A stretch of 59,557 nt of DNA from Gammaproteobacteria bacterium (GTDB taxonomy: Bacteria; Pseudomonadota; Gammaproteobacteria; Steroidobacterales; JABDLF01), in the NCBI GenBank assembly GCA_041609715.1, contig JBFIQI010000003.1:1-59557 (forward strand). The letters run 5' to 3'. Below, piece after piece: positions 41,288 to 53,549 of this stretch. Under the pieces are notes generated by a model, which saw only the letters and a program-made list of their open reading frames with translations, was not told where the DNA came from and searched no databases. The position numbers and the translations under genes were made by a program. Position 1 is the first letter of the stretch. Each line of letters opens with the position of its first letter.

Positions 41288-41421
41288 TGACTTGCCTCCT
41301 GACGACCATTGGATGCTGTCCGATGCCTGGCGGCGCCGGTGCTTCCTATCCCTAGAAGTGTTATGTATACTACTTCAATGTATCTGAGATTTCCAGCTTG
41401 CCAGTCCGTTGGTGGCCGGGC

Positions 41422-41775
41422 ATGAACATCGGCAAGGACCTCGTCGCGGCCTCTGCCACACCCCTGGTACTGTCCATCCTCAGCGAGGGGGAGAGCTATG
41501 GATATGCCATCATCAAACGCGTGGATGAACTTTCTGGCGGCGAACTCAAATGGACGGACGGCATGCTCTACCCGGTGCTCCACCGCCTCGAACGCAACGC
41601 TTATGTGAAAGCTTCATGGGGCAGGTCCCGGGCAGGCCGGCGCAGGAAGTACTACCGGCTGACCGATAAAGGCTTACAGGAACTCGCCAGTCAGCGCCGG
41701 CAGTGGCAAGTGGTGGACGACGCGTTACGGGCCACCCCTTTCCATGATTTCCAACTGGCAGCACGGGGAACCTGA
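41422..41775 (+). CDS. PadR-family transcriptional regulator
   Basis: SYGYAII, GMLYPVLHRLE, RRRKYYRLT. Confidence 0.93.
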   Translation: MNIGKDLVAASATPLVLSILSEGESYGYAIIKRVDELSGGELKWTDGMLYPVLHRLERNAYVKASWGRSRAGRRRKYYRLTDKGLQELASQRRQWQVVDDALRATPFHDFQLAARGT

Positions 41776-41798
41776 CCCCTCAATCGAGAATACGCCTG

Positions 41799-43151
41799 AT
41801 GCTGGAACAACGAATCGGTGAATGGCGATCATGCGTCCTCAAGCGGCGCGCCATGGATGCGAGCGACGTGGACGAGCTCGAGGATCACCTGAGAAACCAG
41901 GTGAGCGATCTGCGTCAAGCCGGGCTGGATGAGGAAGAGGCTTTTCTGATTGCGGTCAAGCGCATTGGTGAACTTGACGCCATCTCAAGGGAATATGCCC
42001 GGGAATACTCAGAGCGCTTGTGGAAACGGTTGGTTTTTACCCATGAGCCCGGAACCGACGCCTCCCGATCACGGCAAGAGGCGCGCGTCGCCGTAGGGCT
42101 GGCAGTCGCCGCCGCAGCCGCCATCAAAGCGCCGGAGCTTTTCGGTGTCGGGCTTGATGACCCAGATCCGCAACCCGCTTTCTACATGAGAAACCTCAGC
42201 CTTTTTGTCCTGCCATTTCTGGCGGGATTCTTCGCCTGGAAGAGGCAAGTGGCACAGGAGACCTGGCGCTCTGTGGGCGGAATATTCCTGGTCAGTGCCC
42301 TGGTAATGAATTTATTCCCATTCACTCCCATGGGAAACACGCAGATTCTGGCGGCCATACATCTACCCATGGCCCTGTGGCTGGCGACGGGTATCGCCTA
42401 TGCCGGAGGGCAGTGGCGCGATCATGGGCAACGGATGCATTTCATCCGCTTCTCCGGAGAATGGTTCATCTATTACGCCCTGATTGCCTTTGGCGGCGGC
42501 GTGCTGATGGGGGTCACGGTTTTTATATTCAGCGCCATCGGTGTGGACCCCGAGTGGATTGTGAATGAGTGGGTACTGCCCTGCGGAGTAATGGGTGCAG
42601 TGATTATTGCGGGCTGGCTGGTGGAGGCCAAGCAAAGTGTCGTCGAAAATATGGCTCCCGTGCTCACGATGCTATTCACGCCGCTGTTCGCGTTGTTGCT
42701 CCTGGTGTTCCTGGGAACCATGCTGTGGACCGGCAGCGGCATCAACGTGGAGCGGGAAGTGCTCATCGGCTTTGACCTGCTGCTGGTGGTGGTAGTGGGC
42801 CTGCTGCTATACGCCATCTCGGCAAGAGACCCCGGGCGTGCACCGGGGTTCTTCGACGGCCTGCAGCTGCTGCTGGTTGTCTCGGCGCTGCTGGTGGACG
42901 CATTGGCTCTCTGGGCAATACTCGCGAGGATCTCGGAATTCGGCCTCAGCCCCAATCGTGTTGCCGCCCTGGGCGAGAATCTTATCCTGGTTATCAACCT
43001 GGGCTGGTCGGCGGTGCTGTATTCGAGGTTTTTGAGAGGCCGAGGCAGCTTTTACGATCTTGAACGCTGGCAAACTGCGTACCTGCCGGTTTACGCAATC
43101 TGGGCGGCGATAGTTGTGCTGGTATTCCCGGCGATGTTCGCGTTTCAATAA
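41799..43151 (+). CDS. Permease-prefix-domain membrane protein (PadR-associated)
   Basis: ELEDHLR...GLDEEEAFLIAVKRIG N-terminal domain; about 10 TM. Confidence 0.85.
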   Translation: MLEQRIGEWRSCVLKRRAMDASDVDELEDHLRNQVSDLRQAGLDEEEAFLIAVKRIGELDAISREYAREYSERLWKRLVFTHEPGTDASRSRQEARVAVGLAVAAAAAIKAPELFGVGLDDPDPQPAFYMRNLSLFVLPFLAGFFAWKRQVAQETWRSVGGIFLVSALVMNLFPFTPMGNTQILAAIHLPMALWLATGIAYAGGQWRDHGQRMHFIRFSGEWFIYYALIAFGGGVLMGVTVFIFSAIGVDPEWIVNEWVLPCGVMGAVIIAGWLVEAKQSVVENMAPVLTMLFTPLFALLLLVFLGTMLWTGSGINVEREVLIGFDLLLVVVVGLLLYAISARDPGRAPGFFDGLQLLLVVSALLVDALALWAILARISEFGLSPNRVAALGENLILVINLGWSAVLYSRFLRGRGSFYDLERWQTAYLPVYAIWAAIVVLVFPAMFAFQ

Positions 43152-43724: not shown

Positions 43725-44093
43725 GTCGATTCGCAATCATGTTGTCTTGAATGGTGCGTCCGGATATCACCAGGCATCAAGGCCAATAACCCCGGTTAAA
43801 AATAAATTGTACTGGAATCGGGTCGCAGGATGCAGATACTTGCCGGGAGCCGCGGCGTTTCGAAGCGGTCCGTTTGTCTCATGGACAGCAATGCTTGCCT
43901 ATGAAACATGTTTCACTCATCCAGGCTATCAGCCGGCCGCTGCACATACTGCCGGGTGCCCATACTCTTGCATGCAGCTCGCAATGCCAGCCCGGAAGCA
44001 AATTATGTCAACCCATTTAGGCGCGAGATGCGTTATATTTTCCCGAAGCTTGAACGATTTACCACGCACAGACCGGGTGGCAAGGAAAAGGCG

Positions 44094-45950
44094 ATGGATA
44101 ATCCCGGCACAGACCGCAGAAGCATCTCGATATCGAGATTCGTGCTGGATCTCGATCGCTGTGCGCTGCTGGACGAGGGACGTGAGATCCCGCTGCGTCC
44201 CAAGACCTTCGAGGTACTGCACTTTCTCGTGCAAAACGCCGGCGTTGTTGTCTCGTCGCGGGAACTGCTGGACGCGGTCTGGGGGGATATTGTGGTCACG
44301 GAAGACTCGGTGCGCCAGTGTGTCGCCGATGCGCGCAAAGCCCTGGGCGACAAAGATCACGATATCATCCGCACAGTGCCGCGTCGGGGCTATCTCTTCG
44401 ATTCGCCCGCGGACCAGGCAGCGCCTCAGGGCAGCCGGCCCGTCTCGCAACGCTTTCGCCCGAGCTGGTTACTTGTAGCCGGGATCAGCATTTTGCTTCT
44501 CGCTGCTGTTGTCTTCCGCTTCCTTGGCGAGGACGCAGTCGAACCGACAGTGAATCTCCAGCCGGCGGCGAATTCCGTTGCCGTCCTGCGATTTGCTGAC
44601 CTGAGCCCGGACGGAAATCATGGTTACCTGGCTGCCGGCCTGGCTGAGGAAATTCTTCATTACCTGGCGCAGAGCCCTTCCCTGCGCGTCATTGCCCGTA
44701 CATCATCCTTCGCCGTCGAGGGCGATTCTATCGCGGCAATCGGTCAGCAGCTTAACGTTGCAAACGTGCTGGAGGGGAGCATACGCCGGGACGGCGACCG
44801 GCTACGGGTCTCCGTGCAACTCGTGGATACTGCAAACAGCTTCCATCGCTGGTCTCGAACCTATGATGTTGAGTACCGGAATATTCTCGCTGTCCAGACA
44901 GAGATTGCCCAGGTGGTGGCGAGTCAACTGGACGTCACGCTCGGTAACCGAAAACGAGGCTCAACTTCAGACCCCCAGGCCCTGGAGCATTTCCTGCAAG
45001 CAAGGTTTTTCTATTCTAGGCGCGGACCGGACGACGTGGAGCTTGCGGAGGATCATTATCGGATGGCGCTCGATGTCGACCCGGCGTACGCCGAGGCCTG
45101 GGCCGGACTGGCCGCAATTGCCAACTTGCGCCTCCATGGCAAAAACCCCGAGGCTGACCCGGAACGGCGCGCACAACTCACGGAGACGCAAAGGCATGCC
45201 GTGGAACAGGCGCTGCAATACGGCCCGGGTCTGGCGGATATCCAGATGAGGGCAGCGTCTTATTTCCGGTTCAACGGAGAGCGTGACCGGGCGGTCAAAC
45301 ATATTGAAATTGCCCGAACGCTCGACCCTGATAACTGGCTGGTGCTATCAGCCGATGCTGCACGCCATCTTATCCGCCGCAGGCCCGAGGAGGCTGTCGA
45401 TGTCATGCGCCAGGCTGTGCAGCTCGATCCTCTGAATGCAGTTCTTCGTAATAACCTCGCAGCTTACTATTTCTACGCTGGCCAGTTCCAGAAAGCGCTG
45501 GATCAGCTTCGCGAAGCTGAGCGGCAGTATCCCAACATCGTGCAATCGAATACGGACCAGCAGGTTTCGATCGCCAAGGCACTGATCCTTCTGGAAAGGT
45601 TCGAGGAGGCGCTGGGAGTTGTTCAATCATTACCGGCTGGTTGGCGCAGCTATGGACTGGCCCTGGTTTATCATGCTCTTGGTTCGAATTCGGAAGCGGA
45701 AGAGTCCTTGGCGGAGCTGCAGGCGCTGCCACCGGAGCCTGGGAACCTGCTCGCCGTAGCCGAGGTGCATGCTTACCGCGGAGAGTCTGCACAGGCTTTA
45801 ACCTGGCTGAACCGGCTCAAACCACACCTGCTCTGCTTCGGCGGGGTCATGCCCATAGATGCTTATTATTCGCATTTCCTTGCCAGGCTGGACGATTTAA
45901 AGCAATGGCGAGAGGCGGCCGCTACACGGATGGCGGACTGCGTCTACTGA
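44094..45950 (+). CDS. CadC/OmpR-type winged-helix regulator with TM, TolB-like and TPR domains
   Basis: LRPKTFEVL, ELLDAVW, IRTVPRRGY, SVAVLRF, VIARTSSF, TPRs; AGGA RBS before ATG 44094. Confidence 0.9.
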   Translation: MDNPGTDRRSISISRFVLDLDRCALLDEGREIPLRPKTFEVLHFLVQNAGVVVSSRELLDAVWGDIVVTEDSVRQCVADARKALGDKDHDIIRTVPRRGYLFDSPADQAAPQGSRPVSQRFRPSWLLVAGISILLLAAVVFRFLGEDAVEPTVNLQPAANSVAVLRFADLSPDGNHGYLAAGLAEEILHYLAQSPSLRVIARTSSFAVEGDSIAAIGQQLNVANVLEGSIRRDGDRLRVSVQLVDTANSFHRWSRTYDVEYRNILAVQTEIAQVVASQLDVTLGNRKRGSTSDPQALEHFLQARFFYSRRGPDDVELAEDHYRMALDVDPAYAEAWAGLAAIANLRLHGKNPEADPERRAQLTETQRHAVEQALQYGPGLADIQMRAASYFRFNGERDRAVKHIEIARTLDPDNWLVLSADAARHLIRRRPEEAVDVMRQAVQLDPLNAVLRNNLAAYYFYAGQFQKALDQLREAERQYPNIVQSNTDQQVSIAKALILLERFEEALGVVQSLPAGWRSYGLALVYHALGSNSEAEESLAELQALPPEPGNLLAVAEVHAYRGESAQALTWLNRLKPHLLCFGGVMPIDAYYSHFLARLDDLKQWREAAATRMADCVY

Positions 45951-46165
45951 CCGGCATCGCCTTTTGCCGTCTGCACTGGGGCGGCATCATTTAAGGAATG
46001 AACGATCTTGGCCTCCACTGGATTAAGGCCACCGGCCAGGCCCCCGGACCATCCGTCCCCGGTGTAGGCATTGGCCCTGCCGGCAGCCAGCAGCGCCGCA
46101 ACAATAGCCAGAGCCGCGGCGAACCAGATTATCTTGCTGACTTTTTTGCTGATTATGCTCCTCAT
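45944..46165 (-). CDS. Small secreted hypothetical protein
   Basis: Signal peptide MRSIISKKVSKIIWFAAALAIVAALLAAGRANA. Confidence 0.55.
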   Translation of the reverse strand: MRSIISKKVSKIIWFAAALAIVAALLAAGRANAYTGDGWSGGLAGGLNPVEAKIVHSLNDAAPVQTAKGDAGQ

Positions 46166-46230
46166 AGGAATGCGCCCCCTTGCAGCCCCTGTGGGAGGAC
46201 CTGAGCTTGCCCCGTGTGGAGGGCACAAGT

Positions 46231-46265
46231 CCGCAAATATCCGTGAAATTTTCGTGAATCATGAA
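46231..46265 (-). promoter_or_regulatory. 11-bp-periodic direct repeats, candidate wHTH operator
   Basis: Minus strand TTCACG-AAAAT-TTCACG-GATAT-TTGCGG upstream of the small secreted gene. Confidence 0.5.
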
Positions 46266-46537
46266 TTCGGATAATTAATTCAGTAGCTTGACTGGCAACC
46301 GGCGCCAGAAACGATCCGTTTATTGATGGCCCGCATTCCGGTTGCTAAGTTTTTATCACTACAAATCGAGCGCCATGGAGAGTGCTATGGGCACGATAAG
46401 ACTGAGGCGGCATTCAATCGCAGGCAGCATGCGACTTGAATGTGATTCATTCACGGCTTGTCGCAATCCCCGGCACGCCTCAGCCTGGCCTTTTTGCAGA
46501 AAGATTGCATGCATAAATGGTGGGAATCACCTGGCAG

Positions 46538-46637
46538 ACCTAGCGCATCCGGGGAAGTTTTTTTGCCCTGCGCTTTTCATTACCAAACAAATAAAAAGCA
46601 TGCCCCTGAAATACCCGAGAGATTTTGTTTGTCAGCT
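46538..46637 (-). repeat. Degenerate attC (MAPEG cassette)
   Basis: AGCTGAC-AAACAAAATCTCTCGG...GCGCTAGGT right after the stop; both R boxes mutated. Confidence 0.45.
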
Positions 46638-46642
46638 GTCAT

Positions 46643-47056
46643 TCATAACAAATCAAAGACAAAAGCGCCCCACATCACGAACAGGCAAATGGTGCTGGTC
46701 ATGTATGCTAACCAACGGTGCATAACCCTGTTGTAGGTCACGTGAATCAAGCTGTGCAGAGCGCGTAAGGCGACATAGAGCCAGGCGAGAACCAGTTGAA
46801 GTTGCGTCACCTGGCCCGTAACAAAGAGAATGATGCAAATCGCATAAAAAAGGACAGGAGCCTCCAGGAGATTGCTGAAATTATCGGCTGCGGAGACGTC
46901 TTTCAGCTTGTTCGAAGCCATCTCGCTGGTCGCCAATGACTGCGGATCTATTTGATTTTTTCTTATTTCCGATATTCGCCGTACATACATCAATACCCAT
47001 ATGCAGGCTGTAAGCGCCACTAAAGTGATGACCGGCCAGAATATGGAGATTTGCAT
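46643..47056 (-). CDS. MAPEG-family membrane protein (cassette)
   Basis: DNFSNLLEAPVLFY, LAWLYVALRALHSLIH...NRVMHR. Confidence 0.9.
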   Translation of the reverse strand: MQISIFWPVITLVALTACIWVLMYVRRISEIRKNQIDPQSLATSEMASNKLKDVSAADNFSNLLEAPVLFYAICIILFVTGQVTQLQLVLAWLYVALRALHSLIHVTYNRVMHRWLAYMTSTICLFVMWGAFVFDLL

Positions 47057-47068
47057 GTTTAAATTGCT

Positions 47069-47190
47069 GCCTGGCGTTTTAATTCAGCGAAGCATCGCTG
47101 GACGCACGTTTTACCCTCTTGCTCCCCGCCGCTGATCCAGACTCCAAAAATGCCCCGTGCAGGCACCAAATTTCAAGTGAGGGGTTGATG
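47069..47190 (-). repeat. Degenerate attC (DM13 cassette)
   Basis: TCAGCGG ... CGCTGAATTAAAACGCCAGGC, similar to the common CGCTGAACTCAAACGTTAGGC attC end; R'' boundary uncertain. Confidence 0.5.
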
Positions 47191-47200
47191 CGCACCTGGC

Positions 47201-47677
47201 TCACTGATATTTCGCTGCCGTGATGAATTCTCCGAATGATTCGCACCAAACTATGACACTGTCATAACGCGACGGGTCCAGTCCCTCGGGTACGGGAACA
47301 ACAAAGCCATCAAAAGTCTTTACATCACCCACCAGCGCCATGCTGGACCTGATGCGCTCGAATTCTGCTTCCGTTTCCACAAATTGGGGCGACAGATACA
47401 GTTTATAGTCCGGGCCCGGTGCTAGCCTACCGCTGTGCGATATTGCACTCTTGCCTATGAACACCCGGCCCTCACCCCAGTGAAATGCATCACTATCCAG
47501 GAGGTCGCGACGAAACTCGGCAGTATAGGTAGCGCGCGCAGAGACAGCAGCAAGCTCCTCAGAAGACGGTGCCGCGGGCGCAATCAGGATGGGCAGCGCG
47601 TAGATGCCCGCTGCAAAGCCGATTGCAAGCGCAATTCCATGGGTTGTCGCCAGGATCAAAGATGTGCGTATTTTCAT
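47201..47677 (-). CDS. DM13-domain protein (cassette)
   Basis: HWGEG, LAPGPDYKLYL, VIVWCESFGEFITAA. Confidence 0.85.
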   Translation of the reverse strand: MKIRTSLILATTHGIALAIGFAAGIYALPILIAPAAPSSEELAAVSARATYTAEFRRDLLDSDAFHWGEGRVFIGKSAISHSGRLAPGPDYKLYLSPQFVETEAEFERIRSSMALVGDVKTFDGFVVPVPEGLDPSRYDSVIVWCESFGEFITAAKYQ

Positions 47678-47698
47678 AGTGAGCGACTCCGGAGGATT

Positions 47699-47756
47699 GC
47701 CTGGTGCCGATGACTATTTCAAACAGGCAATGATACGCTGCTGGGCCTTGTCAGGC
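47699..47756 (-). repeat. Strongly degenerate attC remnant
   Basis: GCCTGAC-AAGGCCCAGCAGCG resembles the GCCTAACAAGGCGCAGCAGCGG left arm. Confidence 0.4.
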
Positions 47757-47789
47757 AGCATGCGACTCGAGCTGGCATTGTGTCTGAAG

Positions 47790-47868
47790 TCTTAACGCGT
47801 CGGCAGTATGCCGCGGTGTCATTGCTTGCCCTTTATCCGACCCCGCTGGCTACGGCGATTGCTTAGGT
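47790..47868 (-). repeat. Degenerate attC (GFA cassette)
   Basis: ACCTAAG...GATAAAGGGCAAGCAATGACACCGCGGCATACTGCCG...GTTAAGA; core 31/37 identical to the attC at 49547-49633. Confidence 0.7.
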
Positions 47869-48399
47869 CCGGGTCGAACGAAGGCGCTGCTTATAAGCCT
47901 CAATATGTTCTCGAAGCGCCTCACGTCTCTCCAGGCTTTCCCTGGGCCAGTATTTTGTCCGATCATAGTACTCGGGAACGGCCGGCACGCCGGCCGGTAG
48001 GGAGATCCATGGCTGCTTCGATGCCGTGAAGATGTGAATATCTGGAGGAAACCGATCCGGATCATCCAACGTGCCGACACGGATGAACTTAAAAACCGGG
48101 CCAGCGCCAGCGTAATGGCTCCATAAGGCGACGTGGCATCGGGGGCACCTGGCAACCTGCTGGCCCAGGCCACTCTCGGACGGAGTCTCGATCATCACCG
48201 GGTCACCACCCAGATCCAGCACCCGATCCGATTCGATTATGGCATTCAGGGCGAAGGATGCTCCTGACTCCCGCTGGCACCAACGACAATGGCAGCAGTG
48301 CACGAACATCGGCTTTGCGTCCAGGCGGTAGCGGACGAAGCCACAGTCGCATCCGCCTTCAGCGCCGGACCATGCTGGGTTCTTTTTATCCGAGTTCAC
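47863..48399 (-). CDS. GFA/CENP-V family protein (cassette)
   Basis: GGCDCG, HCCHCRWCQRESG, RCPRC, GTLDDP, SKQPW. Confidence 0.93.
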   Translation of the reverse strand: MNSDKKNPAWSGAEGGCDCGFVRYRLDAKPMFVHCCHCRWCQRESGASFALNAIIESDRVLDLGGDPVMIETPSESGLGQQVARCPRCHVALWSHYAGAGPVFKFIRVGTLDDPDRFPPDIHIFTASKQPWISLPAGVPAVPEYYDRTKYWPRESLERREALREHIEAYKQRLRSTRT

Positions 48400-48406
48400 G
48401 GCACGA

Positions 48407-48494
48407 CCCTAGCGCCTTGGCTCAGTGGCGTTACGCCGTAGTTTCCTTAATCGCCCTTTATTCATGAACCATCTGCTGCTGCGCCTTATTAGGC
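48407..48494 (-). repeat. Degenerate attC (lipoprotein cassette)
   Basis: GCCTAATAAGGCGCAGCAGCAGATGG...AATAAAGGGC...CGCCACTGAGCCAAGGCGCTAGGG; both arms resemble the attC at 49547. Confidence 0.75.
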
Positions 48495-48889
48495 ACCGTT
48501 TTGCCCATCACTTCAGACTTTAATACGTCCAAAGTATTTTTCATCGATGTGACCATCGGCGAGTCTTCGCGAGCCCGATAAATGCTAATCCTGTATTCAT
48601 TTGTCTCAAATGGATTCCTCATGAGAATGAGTGAGTCGGGTCGCCACATTGCGATCATAAAGCGAGGTTTGCTCGGATGTACGCGGCGGGTAACCAACTC
48701 GTAACCGTGTGTGGCAGCGAATCCGGACAGGATTGATTTCACTTCTGCTTCAGTTATCGCGGTAAGTTGCAATTGTATGCTCGCAGAGGGTTTGCTTTCA
48801 TATTGATCATAATCAATGAGTTCATCCTGACAACCATTTAGCACGATCAATACGGCCAGACCAACATGTATCGAACAAAGTTCGCGCAT
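48458..48889 (-). CDS. Hypothetical lipoprotein (cassette)
   Basis: LAVLIVLNGC lipobox; start after the preceding attC; C-terminus reads into the attC. Confidence 0.7.
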   Translation of the reverse strand: MRELCSIHVGLAVLIVLNGCQDELIDYDQYESKPSASIQLQLTAITEAEVKSILSGFAATHGYELVTRRVHPSKPRFMIAMWRPDSLILMRNPFETNEYRISIYRAREDSPMVTSMKNTLDVLKSEVMGKTVPNKAQQQMVHE

Positions 48890-48897
48890 CAAGTCAT

Positions 48898-48987
48898 GCC
48901 TAGGCCGCAGCGAGCGGCGGGTAGCCGATTTAGTCTCAAAAAACATCGAAGCCTGTCCCATAGGCCCGCCCGAATGCATAGTCATAC
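48898..48987 (-). repeat. Degenerate attC (cassette 48982-49533)
   Basis: GTATGAC (contains the stop)...GGGCGG...CCGCCGCTCGCTGCGGCCTAGGC. Confidence 0.55.
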
Positions 48988-49533
48988 CGCACTGGAGAAC
49001 TTCTTCGCACTCGCGAAAAAGGCGGGGACGAAAGCCAGCTCAATCAGGCCACCCACCATAGCAGCAAGTGGAGGCGAGAGTAACAGAAAGAATGATACGC
49101 ACGATGCCGCAACCAGAGTCAGGCCCATAGCCCAGTAGACTTTCAATCCGTAAAGCGTCGCAAATACCGTATACCTACACCCGATCGTGACCATCATGGC
49201 AGGAAAGAACAGCTCCTCCCGCAGATGATATAGCCCGTACGCCATAATGCAGCACGCGATGAGCCAGATTGTCGATGCCCATGCAAGCTGATTCAGCGCA
49301 TTGGGAGAAGGCGCCTCTCGCGGTTTGACCCAGAATCTGTCCAGCATCGAGCTGATTGGGTAAATCAAAGCTCCGCCGACAAGTAGTGTCCACACCCCCT
49401 GCGGGGTACCCAACAGGAAGCAAACAACTGACGACGTGAGCCACACAAGGCCCGACGTAAGAACACCTGTAGCACCGTCGTAATGAATCCGGCGCATTTC
49501 GGATTGCAAGCGATCATTCAAAGCTAGCTGCAT
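48982..49533 (-). CDS. Membrane protein, DUF7010-like (cassette)
   Basis: GATGVLTSGLVW, GGALIYP, FFPAMMVTIGCRYTVFATLYG; 6 TM; GAGG RBS. Confidence 0.75.
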   Translation of the reverse strand: MQLALNDRLQSEMRRIHYDGATGVLTSGLVWLTSSVVCFLLGTPQGVWTLLVGGALIYPISSMLDRFWVKPREAPSPNALNQLAWASTIWLIACCIMAYGLYHLREELFFPAMMVTIGCRYTVFATLYGLKVYWAMGLTLVAASCVSFFLLLSPPLAAMVGGLIELAFVPAFFASAKKFSSAV

Positions 49534-49546
49534 GAGTTCCTCTGCA

Positions 49547-49633
49547 CTCTAATGTCTTGGCTTAGCGGCGGCACGCCGCTGTGTCGTTGCTTGCACTTTA
49601 TCGACCACCGTCCGCTGCTGCGCATTGTTAGAT
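49547..49633 (-). repeat. attC site, best preserved (R' mutated)
   Basis: ATCTAAC-AATGCG-CAGCAGCGGACGG...CCGCCGCTAAG-CCAAGAC-ATTAGAG: canonical R'', pairing L arms, GTT changed to ATT in R'. Confidence 0.8.
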
Positions 49634-49923
49634 TGCCGACCGAGCATGCCTCTCAGAAAAATAATTAGAGCAGCGCTGTAGGCAGCGTGATATGGGGTGA
49701 CTCGACTTTCGTGACTGAGACCGATCGAGTTCTCCAAAACAAAAAACGCGCCCAGGACAACGAAGAACGTCACTGCGGCCCGGCCAACTAACTGTAAAGC
49801 TGAAACGCCATCCTCTCCGTCTCCGCCGTTTGGCTTGGACCCTGGGAGGAATCGCAGAGATATCCAGACTGCCAATGCGATTCCAACCGTGAGTGCTCCG
49901 AAAGTGACGAGATGGTTAATCAT
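49549..49923 (-). CDS. Hypothetical membrane protein (first cassette)
   Basis: 3 TM; C-terminal SNNAQQRTVVDKV...AAAKPRH is translated attC. Confidence 0.7.
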   Translation of the reverse strand: MINHLVTFGALTVGIALAVWISLRFLPGSKPNGGDGEDGVSALQLVGRAAVTFFVVLGAFFVLENSIGLSHESRVTPYHAAYSAALIIFLRGMLGRQSNNAQQRTVVDKVQATTQRRAAAKPRH

Positions 49924-49939
49924 TACAAAGCTTCATAAT

Positions 49940-49965
49940 GGCAATCTAACTATTATTAGCAGGCT
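49940..49965 (-). other. attI-like site (alternatively the R' end of another decayed attC)
   Basis: GCTAATAATA-GTTAGATTGCC; GTTAGATTGCC is exactly complementary to GGCAATCTAAC at the far end of the first cassette. Confidence 0.55.
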
Positions 49966-50256
49966 TACACAAAAAGAAGAATCCTAAATTGGTAGTGGCC
50001 ATGCAAAAGCTCCTTTTAGACCGCCTTGTCAGCTGATCAAGGGCGAATAAACGATTTGGTAAACCGGTCGAACGAGACTAACCTCGTTCTTTGGCTGCTT
50101 TTCAGGCCAATTTAATGCCTTGAAGGCGCCCCTGCAATGGGGAAGAACACTCACATAATGCCCTGGCATGGGTATGAGAGCTGCGAGAAACCGGATGACT
50201 GGCGCAAACACATCTGGTACTACACCGGCTGCCGCCGGTATTGGTCTGCAACCCGG

Positions 50257-51126
50257 CTAGCCCATCAGGGCATGCACGGCTTGCGCGAAGCGATACGGCG
50301 ACTCGGGGTCGGTGCGAAAATAAAGCGCCGGCTCGATGAGTTCCAGTTCCATCAGTTGAAAGCCTTTGCTTGAATTGCTGCGCACGAAGTCCACTCGCGC
50401 ATACAGCAGGTTTTCCGCCAGGCCGGCGAGGGCACGCCGCCCGGCGCTTTGCAACCTGTCGTCGGCCTGGATCGGCTTGATATCAGCACCGTGCTCTTCC
50501 TGGCTGCGGAAGTCATTGGCCTTTGGGGTTTTCAAAATGGCGTGGCTGTACTCCCCATTGAAATAAAACAATGAATATTCACCCTCGGTTTCGATATGTT
50601 TCAGGAACGGCTGTACCAGCAGCGGCGTGCTGGCGTAATACGCCTCCACTTCCTCTTGCAGGGCAACGAAACTATCCTGATGCAAGCGATAGGCGCCGCT
50701 GGCGGTCGCACCCACCTGTGGCTTTATTACCAGCTCATCAGTCTCGAGCAAGGCGAACAGCTCCGTTAGTTCACCTGGCGCCAGCGCATCTGCGAATCGG
50801 GTGGGCACGATCTCCACGCCTTGTTGGTGCAGGTCGCGCAAATAAGTCTTTTCCAGGTTCCAGCCCACAATGCTTAGGGGGTTTTCCAGGCGTGCGCTGC
50901 TGGCTTCGATTTGTCCGAGCACGCGTAAAAACTTCTCAGGCTTTAACTGGTAATCCCAGGGCGAGCGAATGACCACAAGTTGGTAGGTGTTCCAATCGTT
51001 GTCCGACGCGTCCCAGACCACGGGTTCCACCTGCCAGCCGCACTCTGCCATGGGCCCATAGGCGTGCTCATCGTCGATGACGTAGTTGCCGCGTTCGGCC
51101 AGCGTCAGGAAAGCACAGCGTCTCAT
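50257..51126 (-). CDS. RimK/glutathione-synthetase-like ATP-grasp protein
   Basis: IRSPWDY, WNLEKTYL, VIKP, LYARVD, MELELIEPALY. Confidence 0.88.
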   Translation of the reverse strand: MRRCAFLTLAERGNYVIDDEHAYGPMAECGWQVEPVVWDASDNDWNTYQLVVIRSPWDYQLKPEKFLRVLGQIEASSARLENPLSIVGWNLEKTYLRDLHQQGVEIVPTRFADALAPGELTELFALLETDELVIKPQVGATASGAYRLHQDSFVALQEEVEAYYASTPLLVQPFLKHIETEGEYSLFYFNGEYSHAILKTPKANDFRSQEEHGADIKPIQADDRLQSAGRRALAGLAENLLYARVDFVRSNSSKGFQLMELELIEPALYFRTDPESPYRFAQAVHALMG

Positions 51127-51161
51127 TCAGTGGCTTGCTGCGCTGCCAGATTCAGCGATTC

Positions 51162-51281
51162 TCATGTTTCCACAGCCGGGCAGACTTTATGCAACAGGGT
51201 GCCTACTTTTTTGAAGATCGGCCTGGCGCAGGGCTGGGCCCGGACAATGCAGGCGTGTACGCGCGGATTCTGTTTGCTCAT
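51162..51281 (-). pseudogene. 5' stub of a DUF1801/YdeI-like gene
   Basis: MSKQNPRVHACIVRAQPCARPIFKKVGTLLHKVCPAVET* (39 aa) resembles PRVDAYI.KAQPFARPIL..LR.LVH.ACP.VEE; ATG overlaps the upstream TAA. Confidence 0.6.
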
Positions 51282-51598
51282 TAATGATCCGCTTTATTTT
51301 TGCGCGGAGGCTTGAGGGCGGCTGCCACCTCAGCCAGCCAGTCGCGGGTGCTCTGCTCGGGACGCGGGTCATAGCCGCAGCCGAACTCTTCAAACAACAG
51401 CTCGTTGAGTTCATCGTCATTCTTGTTGTTCTTCAGAAATACTCTGATGTCCTGGTATACCTGCTGCACGCGTTCCTTGCGGGAAATGACTTTAAATTTT
51501 TCCACCAGCGCCTGCCAGCTATCGGCCTCCAGGTCCCAGTCCTGGTGAAACCAGTTACCAATAAAGCGGTCCAGAGATTCGTAGTCGTTATCAGTCAT
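51281..51598 (-). CDS. CdiI-like immunity protein (orphan)
   Basis: Y..L..FIGNWFHQDW ... FGCGYDP...RDWL pattern of CdiI_2-type immunity proteins. Confidence 0.7.
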   Translation of the reverse strand: MTDNDYESLDRFIGNWFHQDWDLEADSWQALVEKFKVISRKERVQQVYQDIRVFLKNNKNDDELNELLFEEFGCGYDPRPEQSTRDWLAEVAAALKPPRKNKADH

Positions 51599-51744
51599 TT
51601 TGCTCACGGCAGGATCGACACAGATGATTGCTGGTCGGCTGCCGTCTTTTCGATTGATCTTGCAGTCTTGCCACTCCCGGAGAACACACCACCAGTCTGA
51701 AGATACCACTGCCGGGGGCCCGGCAATAGTCCCGGCCACGGTAC

Positions 51745-52431
51745 TTATTTTGCTTCCCGCATCCTCAGGTAAGCATGCCAGTGAATGCGAGCGGCGACGC
51801 TGCGCCAGGGACGCCAGCGCTCGGCAAGCTCATGGCTTTGCGCGTGTCCCGGTCGCTGGGCAAGCCCAAGCAGTTGCGCCTGGGCAAGCTGCAGTGCCAG
51901 ATCACCGGCCGGCCACACGTCCGGTCGTCCCATAGCCAGCAGCAGATAAATGTCAGCGGTCCAGAGACCAATACCTGGAAGAGACATGAGTCGCTCGCGT
52001 ACCGTGTCGTCATCCTGGCGGGCCAGCGAATTCATGCGCAAGTCACCGTTTTGCACCGCCAAAGCCAGCTTATGGCAGTAGCGTGCCTTTTGACGCGAAA
52101 GCCCCGCCCCGCGCAGCCTTGTTTCGCCGAGGCTGGCAATATTGGCAGCTCGTATGCCGCCGGCGAGGGTTTTGAGCCGTTTGTACACGGCAACACCACT
52201 GGCCACAGATACCTGCTGTTCCAGGATGATCTGTATCAGCGTGGCAAAGCCGGGTGGTCGCAAACGAATCTCAGGAACGCCGTGTTTGTGAACTGCCTCA
52301 CGCAGCTGCGCGTCGCGCCGCGTAAGTTCCCGCACAGCCCGTCGATGGGTGGTCAGGTCGAGACGGCGGCGAGTGTTAACGAGCTTCTCTCCAGAGCATG
52401 ACGGCCAAGGATGCGGGCACCAAGACCCCAA
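51745..52431 (-). CDS. HhH-GPD DNA-3-methyladenine glycosylase (AlkA-like); start uncertain
   Basis: ILEQQVS, GLSRQKARY, LPGIGLWTAD, PDVWPAGDL, WRPWRS. Confidence 0.9.
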   Translation of the reverse strand: MGSWCPHPWPSCSGEKLVNTRRRLDLTTHRRAVRELTRRDAQLREAVHKHGVPEIRLRPPGFATLIQIILEQQVSVASGVAVYKRLKTLAGGIRAANIASLGETRLRGAGLSRQKARYCHKLALAVQNGDLRMNSLARQDDDTVRERLMSLPGIGLWTADIYLLLAMGRPDVWPAGDLALQLAQAQLLGLAQRPGHAQSHELAERWRPWRSVAARIHWHAYLRMREAK

Positions 52432-52558
52432 GCACGCTGACCCACATGGGCGTTACCTCGCCCTCGACCAGGACTTCCCAGCCAAAAATAAGGCGCAACA
52501 AGTGCACCAGCGCCACCAGGCTGAAAAGAACGATTGACAGCAGGCTTCCGATTTTCAT
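52376..52558 (-). CDS. Small 2-TM hypothetical protein
   Basis: LVALVHLLRL..GWEV...PMWVS; AGGGGG RBS. Confidence 0.7.
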   Translation of the reverse strand: MKIGSLLSIVLFSLVALVHLLRLIFGWEVLVEGEVTPMWVSVLGVLVPASLAVMLWREAR

Positions 52559-52650
52559 GGTTTTGCCCCCCTTTGGCTGAGTTTGCCGGCCGGCATCAGC
52601 ATTCAGGTATTAAGAGGATAGCTGGTCATATCCAGCCTCGCCCGCGGTGG

Positions 52651-53466
52651 TCAAACAGATTTTCTTGCCACCACGCCCAGCATGGGCGGTGACAGGAAGA
52701 AGCTGGCCGGATTCTCTGCTCGCTGGCGCCAGTCGGCATCATTAGCGTCAAGATCGTCAGCGCTGAGATAGCCTTTTTTCACGAGCTGCGGCAGGTAGCT
52801 GCGCTGGAATGCGCGGACCCACTGCCATACTGCACTGCCGGGGCGGGCGGTTTCGATAATGGGCTCCAAATGAATAACTTCCAGACCGGCTTCCAGCATC
52901 AGACCGGGCAGCTTGTCGCCTATGTCCAGATCGCCGCCGGCATCTGCAAGGCTCTGATGGATCTGCCCAAACACATGTCTGAATATGTCGCTGGCCGGGA
53001 AGGTATCTATGGCCAGGTAATGAAAATAATCCATGACCACCAGGTGCCCACCGGGACGCAGCGCGCTGGCGACGGCATCGATCACGCGGCCCGGGTCTGG
53101 CAAAAAGCACAACAACCAGCGAATAAAGGCGCCATGCACCGAGGCTACCGGTAATCCCGGCTCGAGGGCATCAGCGACTCGCGCGTCAATGTTCTCGACA
53201 GCGCGTTCGCGGCACCAGCCGGACAGTACCTCGATGAACCTTCGGGAATTATCCAGAGCGATTATCTTGCCGTCAGGCCCGACGCGCTCGGCCAGTTCAA
53301 AACTGGTAAAGCCCGGACCGCAACCGAGGTCCAGCAAGCGCTGTCCGGCACCGAAACCGGCCTCATCGTACAAGCCGACCGTGACCGGTCGCCAGATATC
53401 GTGCTGCTTGGCCAGGCGATCGAGTTCGGCATCGCCGGTGCCTAATACGTAAGGGTGTTTTTTCAA
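52651..53466 (-). CDS. Class I SAM-dependent methyltransferase
   Basis: YVLG...ELDRL..QH, LDLGCGPG, LRPGG. Confidence 0.9.
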   Translation of the reverse strand: MKKHPYVLGTGDAELDRLAKQHDIWRPVTVGLYDEAGFGAGQRLLDLGCGPGFTSFELAERVGPDGKIIALDNSRRFIEVLSGWCRERAVENIDARVADALEPGLPVASVHGAFIRWLLCFLPDPGRVIDAVASALRPGGHLVVMDYFHYLAIDTFPASDIFRHVFGQIHQSLADAGGDLDIGDKLPGLMLEAGLEVIHLEPIIETARPGSAVWQWVRAFQRSYLPQLVKKGYLSADDLDANDADWRQRAENPASFFLSPPMLGVVARKSV

Positions 53467-53549
53467 GGCCAGCCACTCCCGGCATGTCGATCACTACCGA
53501 CGGCACGGTGCAGAGCTTAGCGAATTAATCAGTCAGCGGTAAGTCGCAG

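Follow-up and report, generated by a model that had tools for sequence, protein, structure and literature searches.

Does a run of small minus-strand genes, some of them followed by related repeats, represent the remains of an integron that has lost its integrase gene (intI)? This question is raised by a region at about 46.6-50.2 kb of the window, the term used here for the whole 59,557-nt stretch of DNA that was analysed, which corresponds to contig C3 of a 2.54-Mb, 238-contig metagenome-assembled genome (MAG; hereafter G000) rated 91% complete. In many bacteria, integrons are the main platforms of gene capture, and integrase-less clusters of their attC sites are common and of debated origin. 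An original prediction, made from the letters of the window, had described a six-gene cassette array of a once-active integron that lost intI and is decaying. The analysis presented here, which includes a comparison with three other genomes of the genus (G001, G002 and G003), agrees with the core of that proposal. The region is very probably the remnant of a sedentary chromosomal integron, from which intI was cleanly removed and in which most of the intI-attI region and the array were kept. The evidence comprises attC homology with congeners, a match to an independent attC model, cassette boundaries, conserved blocks on the attI side and the absence of any detected intI.

The congener G003 encodes an intact integron platform. 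Its intI scores 458 bits against the TIGR02249 cut-off of 265 (G003:C18, 60373-61314), and small open reading frames (ORFs) are arrayed beside it on the opposite strand, separated by repeats that end in CCTAAC...GTTAGG and carry R and L boxes. When folded, some of the repeats form textbook attC hairpins (z -6.5 and -3.6), and the dominant family, here called A-type, is about 88 nt long and has R and L boxes and a long unstructured centre. The intI and the intact attC sites that the original prediction had proposed to seek in related genomes are thus both present in G003, where all five A-type sites retain the GTT core. Integrases above the cut-off are common in the order, being found in 65 of 201 sampled genomes and in 33 of 60 genera, a tally that takes in G018, which is flagged as unpublished.

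Three repeats of the window (sites 1, 2 and 3, numbered from the attI side) each abut or overlap the stop codon at the 3' end of a minus-strand ORF. A profile built from 11 congener attC sites (five A-type sites of G003 and six of G002), with no window sequence included, matched site 1 with 71.1 bits (E 4.4e-21), site 2 with 40.3 bits (E 1.9e-11) and site 3 with 30.9 bits (E 1.6e-8, ungapped over positions 2-85), and these full-length minus-strand matches were the only ones at E<=1 in the 2.54-Mb assembly. The three sites thus belong to one repeat family far beyond chance, as had been proposed from their shared arms or core; the quoted cores, at 49602-49566 (site 1) and 47837-47801 (site 3), are indeed 31/37 identical on recount. 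A narrower profile of the five G003 A-type sites yielded E-values of 5.6e-13, 4.1e-10 and 0.053 for sites 1, 2 and 3, respectively. Furthermore, blastn of window sites 1 and 2 against the G003 A-type repeats gave 76-82% identity (E 6.6e-15 and 3.2e-6), site 2 being 76% identical to one G003 site, and the local alignment score of site 3 against known sites was reached by none of 300 shuffles.

These matches are not part of a dispersed repeat. When the five intergenic gaps were compared with the whole assembly by blastn-short, only self-matches, the core shared by sites 1 and 3, and matches of at most 18 nt were obtained. Since blastn-short, the profile and the attC model described below all find the family only at the array locus, a genome-wide repetitive extragenic palindrome (REP), which the original prediction had named as the outcome that would overturn it, does not account for the shared core.

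An independent attC model (R1) was constructed from 24 bottom-strand sites of 8 other integrons, with all A-type and window sites excluded. The sites were picked by their R boxes and folds after the cassette side of ten integrons had been fetched, eight stretches being long enough to scan. RNAalifold recovered the canonical attC architecture from the R1 alignment, an unpaired spacer lying between a 7-bp R stem and a bulged 9-bp L stem, and compensatory changes were present in 8 of the 16 consensus pairs. The whole window was searched with filters off, and the resulting E-values are rough, the calibration having been short. The best match was full-length and coincided with site 1 (49547-49633, plus strand, 30.7 bits, E 1.4e-5), followed by site 2 (48407-48494, plus strand, 14.1 bits, E 0.18). 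Of the other 18 matches, all with E>=0.88, only one, on the wrong strand at 47069-47142 (E 3.8), lay in this region. The plus strand is the bottom strand of minus-strand cassettes, so both leading matches have the expected orientation. A covariance signal had been foreseen at sites 1 and 2 alike, and only that of site 1 is clear. Across the genus, R1 matched G000 once (site 1), G003 11 times (9 in the integron array), G002 8 times (6 in one cluster) and G001 not at all. Together with the profile results, the R1 match identifies the three repeats as relic attC sites of a lineage-specific family whose other members flank cassettes beside the intact intI of the congener.

The cores and stems of the sites show how far they have eroded. 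The GTT core is required for recombination, and it is retained in none of the three sites, which are therefore regarded as relics and not as intact attC sites. The canonical R'' core AAC persists in site 1 alone, so that the RYYYAAC-like box of the original prediction is canonical at that site and altered at sites 2 and 3 (AAT and AAG), the GTTRRRY-like box is canonical nowhere, and the inverse-core pattern RYYYAAC...GTTRRRY is intact in none. Measured against the family structure, the bottom strand of site 1 (cores AAC/ATT) keeps 5 pairs plus 1 wobble pair of 7 in the R box and 10+1 of 12 in the L box; the corresponding counts are 4+1 and 7+2 for site 2 (AAT/GCT), and 3+3 and 4+2 for site 3 (AAG/TTC). 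All three sites have the two bulge positions of this structure. By comparison, the five A-type sites of G003 keep 10-12 of 12 L pairs, AAC in four and GTT in all five, and the six of G002 keep 7-12 of 12 L pairs, with both cores intact in four.

Stem pairing, model scores and profile scores all drop from site 1 to site 3, that is, with distance from attI, which bears out the suggestion that the best-preserved site is the one nearest the attI end. Because distal, and hence older, sites of the intact G003 array are likewise degenerate (AAT and ATT cores), this gradient probably predates the loss of intI in part and may to that extent reflect cassette age.

The boundaries of the first cassette provide further evidence. 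An integron cassette starts with the remainder of its own R' box, and its start should thus complement the R'' end of the attC of that cassette. Over 11 nt, the start of cassette 1, GTTAGATTGCC (49950-49940), and 49637-49627 in its attC are exact reverse complements, and this start/end repeat is the top inverted repeat of the region. A perfect start/end match of 11-13 nt was likewise found in 5 of 9 junction pairs of G003 and 3 of 5 of G002; in the window, the perfect prefix shortens to 5 nt in unit 2 and 0 nt in unit 3. Furthermore, G002 contains the same cassette at another array position, between two attC sites, encoding a protein that is 59% identical to that of cassette 1 over 121 aa. Nucleotide identity between the two copies amounts to 223/317 in the cassette body and 69/87 in the attC, and to 54/110 upstream and 55/107 downstream of the crossovers. 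Homology that starts and ends at the predicted crossovers is the signature of a discrete integron cassette, and the exactness of the predicted boundaries of cassette 1 is shown by these alignments.

On the attI side, 333 bp separate cassette 1 from the ATP-grasp gene, which stops at 50257, and this gap contains two blocks that are collinear with the intI-attI intergenic region of G003. The first, at 49946-49976, is 27/32 identical to the G003 stretch that precedes the first cassette and ends in GTTAG (score 37, against a mean of 17.9 and a maximum of 27 in 200 shuffles), and is predicted from this likeness to be an attI-like junction. The second, at 50134-50166, is 26/33 identical to its G002 counterpart (score 31; maximum of 200 shuffles 28), and this intI-proximal block is 25/26 identical between G003 and G002. 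The blocks are spaced 190 nt apart in the window, compared with 180 nt in G003. Past the intI-proximal block the similarity ends, and the end of the ATP-grasp gene follows about 90 nt further. A 15-nt stretch past the conserved block is alike in G000 and G002 and not in G003, a faint hint that the two may have a single intI deletion in common. At the other end of the array the flank is syntenic with G003, a PadR gene and a gene for a 450-aa protein at 41347-43150 of the window corresponding to L007 13172-14976.

No integrase was detected in G000. TIGR02249 gave no match over the cut-off in the assembly, where two Xer-like matches were obtained on C4 and C66, and tblastn with the IntI of G003 returned nothing below E 0.2 in the window and only Xer-like genes in the assembly. 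By tblastn, an intI remnant was found neither at the window locus nor at that of G002, and a complete integron, with intI adjoining attI and the array, is thus absent from the locus. Public metagenome contigs bridge 49946-50520 (run X1) and 50122-50557 (run X2); therefore, the junction without intI is not a scaffolding artefact. These two runs may be the source samples of the MAG, and no single contig covers the whole array.

Coordinates and strands of the features of the array and its attI side in the window (attI-side features by likeness to G003; crossover predicted)
Feature	Position	Strand	Remarks
intI-proximal intergenic block	50134..50166	minus	G003 counterpart 26-52 nt upstream of the intI start codon
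attI-like junction ending GTTAG	49946..49976	minus	predicted crossover between 49950 and 49949
Cassette 1	49553..49949	minus	membrane-like 124-aa ORF 49549-49923, without Pfam family
attC relic 1	49547..49633	minus	R'' ATCTAAC, R' ATTAGAG (GTT to ATT); folding (bottom) strand is the plus strand of the window
Cassette unit 2	48413..49552	minus	DUF7010 ORF 48982-49533 (183 aa; Pfam 1.4e-25) and 175-aa ORF 48458-48985
attC relic 2	48407..48494	minus	R'' core AAT, R' core GCT
Cassette unit 3	47789..48412	minus	GFA-family ORF 47863-48399 (178 aa; Pfam GFA 2e-26); flanked by relics 2 and 3
attC relic 3, most decayed	47782..47868	minus	R'' core AAG, R' core TTC
DM13-domain ORF	47201..47677	minus	158 aa; Pfam DM13 1.9e-14; begins after relic 3; no recognisable 3' attC
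MAPEG-family ORF	46643..47056	minus	137 aa; Pfam MAPEG 1.5e-18; no recognisable 3' attC

Six intact minus-strand ORFs of 124, 183, 175, 178, 158 and 137 aa are encoded within 46643-49923, and the GC content is 0.53 across the array and 0.587 in the remaining window. The 175-aa ORF has no Pfam family and carries a lipoprotein-like signal, and the stop codon of the GFA ORF falls within an R'' box. About 30 final codons of the 124-aa ORF overlap its attC. Both the 124-aa and the 175-aa ORF extend into their own attC sites (49549-49640 and 48458-48500), so that the repeat encodes their last residues; the attC-encoded tail of the former also resembles translated attC sites of G002. Neither a resistance gene nor, in a Pfam scan, a toxin-antitoxin cassette was seen in the array of the window. 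Metagenome contigs from three runs match only a 50-nt piece inside the 175-aa ORF (48605-48654) and diverge on both sides.

The following history would connect these observations. Cassettes would once have been inserted at attI by IntI via folded bottom-strand attC hairpins. The integrase gene would then have been cleanly lost, leaving no pseudogene, while the attI-side region and the array stayed in place. With intI gone, selection on the attC sites would have lapsed and the sites eroded, the GTT core being gone in all three. The array would now be frozen, its intact ORFs acting as ordinary chromosomal genes.

Several observations weigh against this reading. The original prediction placed an attC-like site after every gene stop, and only three of the six stops carry one; a relic was not detectable after the DUF7010, DM13 or MAPEG genes. 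Neither R1 nor the family profile found anything in the gaps after DM13 (47057-47200) and after MAPEG (46520-46642), and in local alignments against known sites the scores of the DM13 gap, the MAPEG gap and the stretch after DUF7010 were reached by 137, 38 and 27 of 300 shuffles, respectively. The DUF7010 ORF overlaps the next ORF, of 175 aa, and unit 2 may be a two-gene cassette or two fused cassettes. Six cassettes are therefore an overstatement of what are three units delimited by recognisable sites; the assignment of the DM13 and MAPEG genes to the array is inferred only from their orientation, size, position and lower GC content, and these two genes may not be cassettes. Site 3 was not found by R1 at E<=10, and site 2 is only marginal under this general model. 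The surroundings differ as well. In G003, the ortholog of the ATP-grasp gene (59% aa identity) lies 17.7 kb from intI, with ordinary genes for ExbD, TPR, DUF3570, outer membrane (OMP) and ApbE proteins in between. None of these was found in G000 by tblastn, so that the two genomes differ either by intI together with this block or by a rearrangement. The array of G002 has both of its flanks on contig C20 when mapped to G000, and not on the window. Finally, a 91%-complete MAG in 238 contigs leaves room for an intI elsewhere.

The folds count on the same side. The original prediction had described imperfect palindromes, and on either strand the single-strand DNA folds of the five gaps were no stabler than those of dinucleotide shuffles (z -0.68 to +1.03 on the plus strand), the minimum-energy folds of the window sites missing the attC hairpin. 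The A-type sites beside the intact intI of G003, however, also fold weakly (z -0.3 to -1.2), and free energy was for this reason dropped as a criterion. The centre of A-type sites, about 37 nt long, is conserved in sequence and unstructured (window 49566-49602; L007 2543-2630; others). Their L' arm can alternatively pair with an adjacent segment in a local hairpin of 4-8 bp, which is chosen by the minimum-energy fold in site 1 and in one G003 site and which, on these predicted structures, may compete with the recombinogenic fold.

Further candidate sites were considered and rejected. A fourth relic at 48880-48995, between the DUF7010 and 175-aa ORFs, was suggested by eye by CCGCCGCT and a TAGGCA/TGCCTA pair in common with site 2, and was discarded for lack of a profile match and because 27 of 300 shuffles scored equally. 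In 46229-46520, R1, the family profile and the shuffle alignment were all negative, as was the family profile upstream of the ATP-grasp gene (51127-51280, 52432-52650 and 53467-53549) and at 43737-43907.

Among the alternatives to loss of intI in place, the one that survives best, although we judge it unlikely, is that the array is still usable: its cassettes would be excised and reused by an IntI whose gene lies elsewhere, be it in the 9% of the genome missing from the assembly, on a plasmid or in a co-resident relative, making the locus a reservoir and not a fossil. The incompleteness of the MAG leaves scope for this, site 1 retains most of its pairing, and 39 bits are still reached by a distal site of G003 that has the same ATT core. 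Metagenome contigs, compared at >=90% likeness, point in the same direction, as their depth is higher over sites 1 and 2 and they break at predicted cassette boundaries, with loose ends at 49946 and 49564 (run X3) and at 49545 (run X5, four contigs); a further end lies at 50153 (run X2), inside the intI-proximal block. The divergent sequence at the 49564 end carries a canonical R' core. These ends fit alternative cassette contexts, and possibly another allele past the intI-proximal block, if only as a slight indication; they hint that similar cassettes sit in other contexts within the same communities. However, loose ends at this level of likeness may stem from other organisms, GTT is kept in none of the three sites and AAC in one, and no intI was found in 2.54 Mb. 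The reuse of such clusters by an integrase encoded elsewhere is among the possibilities raised for them by Cury et al. (PMC4889954).

It is highly improbable that the cluster goes back to cassettes inserted at a secondary chromosomal site, or to an integron split by a rearrangement. Both routes are among the origins listed in PMC4889954, the genomes of the genus are rearranged, as the mapping of both G002 array flanks to C20 illustrates, and G003 has a second attC pair on another contig. Neither route would readily account for two collinear intI-attI blocks kept at a G003-like spacing, for the joining of cassette 1 to the attI-side region at the GTTAG crossover, or for a distal flank that is syntenic with the G003 integron, and after a split intI should still be present in the genome, where none was found. 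We consider it scarcely credible that the repeats are not attC sites at all but generic intergenic repeats of REP or terminator type or chance likenesses: folds no stabler than shuffles, the lack of an Rfam match at the sites (two chance matches at E<=10 over 44000-53000) and promoter-like and terminator-like scans of the region that did not exceed shuffles are outweighed by repeats that occur only at the array locus, are homologous to sites beside an intact intI, match an independent attC model on the correct strand and delimit exact cassette boundaries.

Loss of intI in place also agrees with what is described for a known class of elements. In Cury et al. 2016 (PMC4889954), attC-site clusters that have no integron-integrase (CALINs) are defined with IntegronFinder, which joins attC sites less than 4 kb apart and calls a CALIN from at least 2 sites; 95% of CALINs are without a nearby intI pseudogene, and loss of intI is one of four proposed origins (route iii). 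In the window, by our own models, sites 1 and 2 are 1.05 kb apart and site 3 lies 0.54 kb further, and neither TIGR02249 over its cut-off in the assembly nor IntI by tblastn at E<0.2 in the window gave a match. As in the CALINs described there, at least two attC sites in the same orientation lie behind promoterless small ORFs, no intI or intI pseudogene is nearby, the cassettes are of unknown or non-resistance function, and an origin by intI loss is proposed. In contrast to those elements, the window sites are degenerate and without a GTT core, with one confidently passing the general attC model R1, the locus retains an attI-side region, and a congener keeps the intact platform, which lets the intI-loss origin be argued directly. 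The element would accordingly be classed, on sequence comparison, as a decayed CALIN-type element formed by intI loss.

The G003 integron shares with the window the attC family, the attI-side blocks, the distal flank with the PadR and 450-aa genes, and a cassette content that is alike in kind (small membrane proteins, MAPEG and unknowns). It differs in having intI, in A-type sites with GTT in all five and 10-12 of 12 L-box pairs, and in carrying BrnT/BrnA and HigB/HigA toxin-antitoxin cassettes. Chromosomal integrons of Xanthomonas with an inactivated intI and eroding arrays, in which intI usually persists as a pseudogene, were reportedly described by Gillings and colleagues in 2005. By that account they resemble the present locus in vertical inheritance, a fixed position, lost integrase function and a decaying array, and differ in the intI pseudogene, whereas no remnant is detectable in the window.

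Several further features of the congeners and flanks were observed. G002 (94% complete, no intI found) has its own array without intI at L032 9560-13660 (G002:C19:14560-18660), in which six A-type sites, one further attC match and the intI-proximal block are kept and which holds homologs of cassette 1 (59% aa identity) and DUF7010 (41%). In the G003 array, a BrnT/BrnA cassette is duplicated at L007 3442-4036 and 6340-6933 (97% identity over 300 nt and 91% over 271 nt), and a HigB/HigA pair, a MAPEG cassette, a SOUL-domain cassette and a 615-aa beta-lactamase-fold protein are also encoded; the MAPEG cassette differs from the MAPEG gene of the window, there being no tblastn match between them. 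The second attC pair of G003 (G003:C11:158984-159586; 42 and 36 bits) has no intI match nearby. About 1.1 kb past the 3' end of the G003 intI, a stretch of about 90 nt (L006 18137-18229) has matches of 84-95% identity on four G000 contigs, in two cases at the contig end, and may be a dispersed repeat or an insertion-sequence end; around it, the ApbE gene seems to be broken into two ORFs. Next to the ATP-grasp gene of the window lies a 152-aa ORF with a CdiI_2 immunity-protein domain (51281-51739; 2e-20), and the pair is adjacent in G003 too. A CdiA-like toxin gene was not seen among the ORFs scanned. The flanking 450-aa protein (41799-43151) has no Pfam family and shares 77% identity with its G003 counterpart. 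Further relatives (59-70%) are encoded at seven loci in MAGs of Acidobacteriota, Gemmatimonadaceae, Eisenbacteria and Omnitrophota, and this spread over distant phyla suggests that the gene moves horizontally.

The locus is thus a known kind of genomic relic, unusually well documented through the intact version at the matching place in a sister species. It reveals no new mechanism, and its cassette genes are unknown or housekeeping-like in function. It does offer a clear worked example of one route to a CALIN, in which intI is deleted, the attI side and the array are left and the sites erode, and sister species with an intact integron and with an intermediate stage are available for direct comparison. 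It also shows that lineage-specific attC profiles make very degenerate arrays recognisable where a single site at best is detected by general models. More tentatively, and in our view less probably than not, the genus may represent a three-stage series of integron decay, leading from G003, with an intact intI and canonical sites, through G002, with no intI found, seven attC matches and an attI-side block, to G000, with no intI, both blocks kept and three relics without GTT, intI having been cleanly removed just upstream of its start codon in G000 and apparently also in G002. If this held generally, clean removal of intI would explain why most CALINs have no intI pseudogene, and the series would let the erosion of attC sites after integrase loss be timed.

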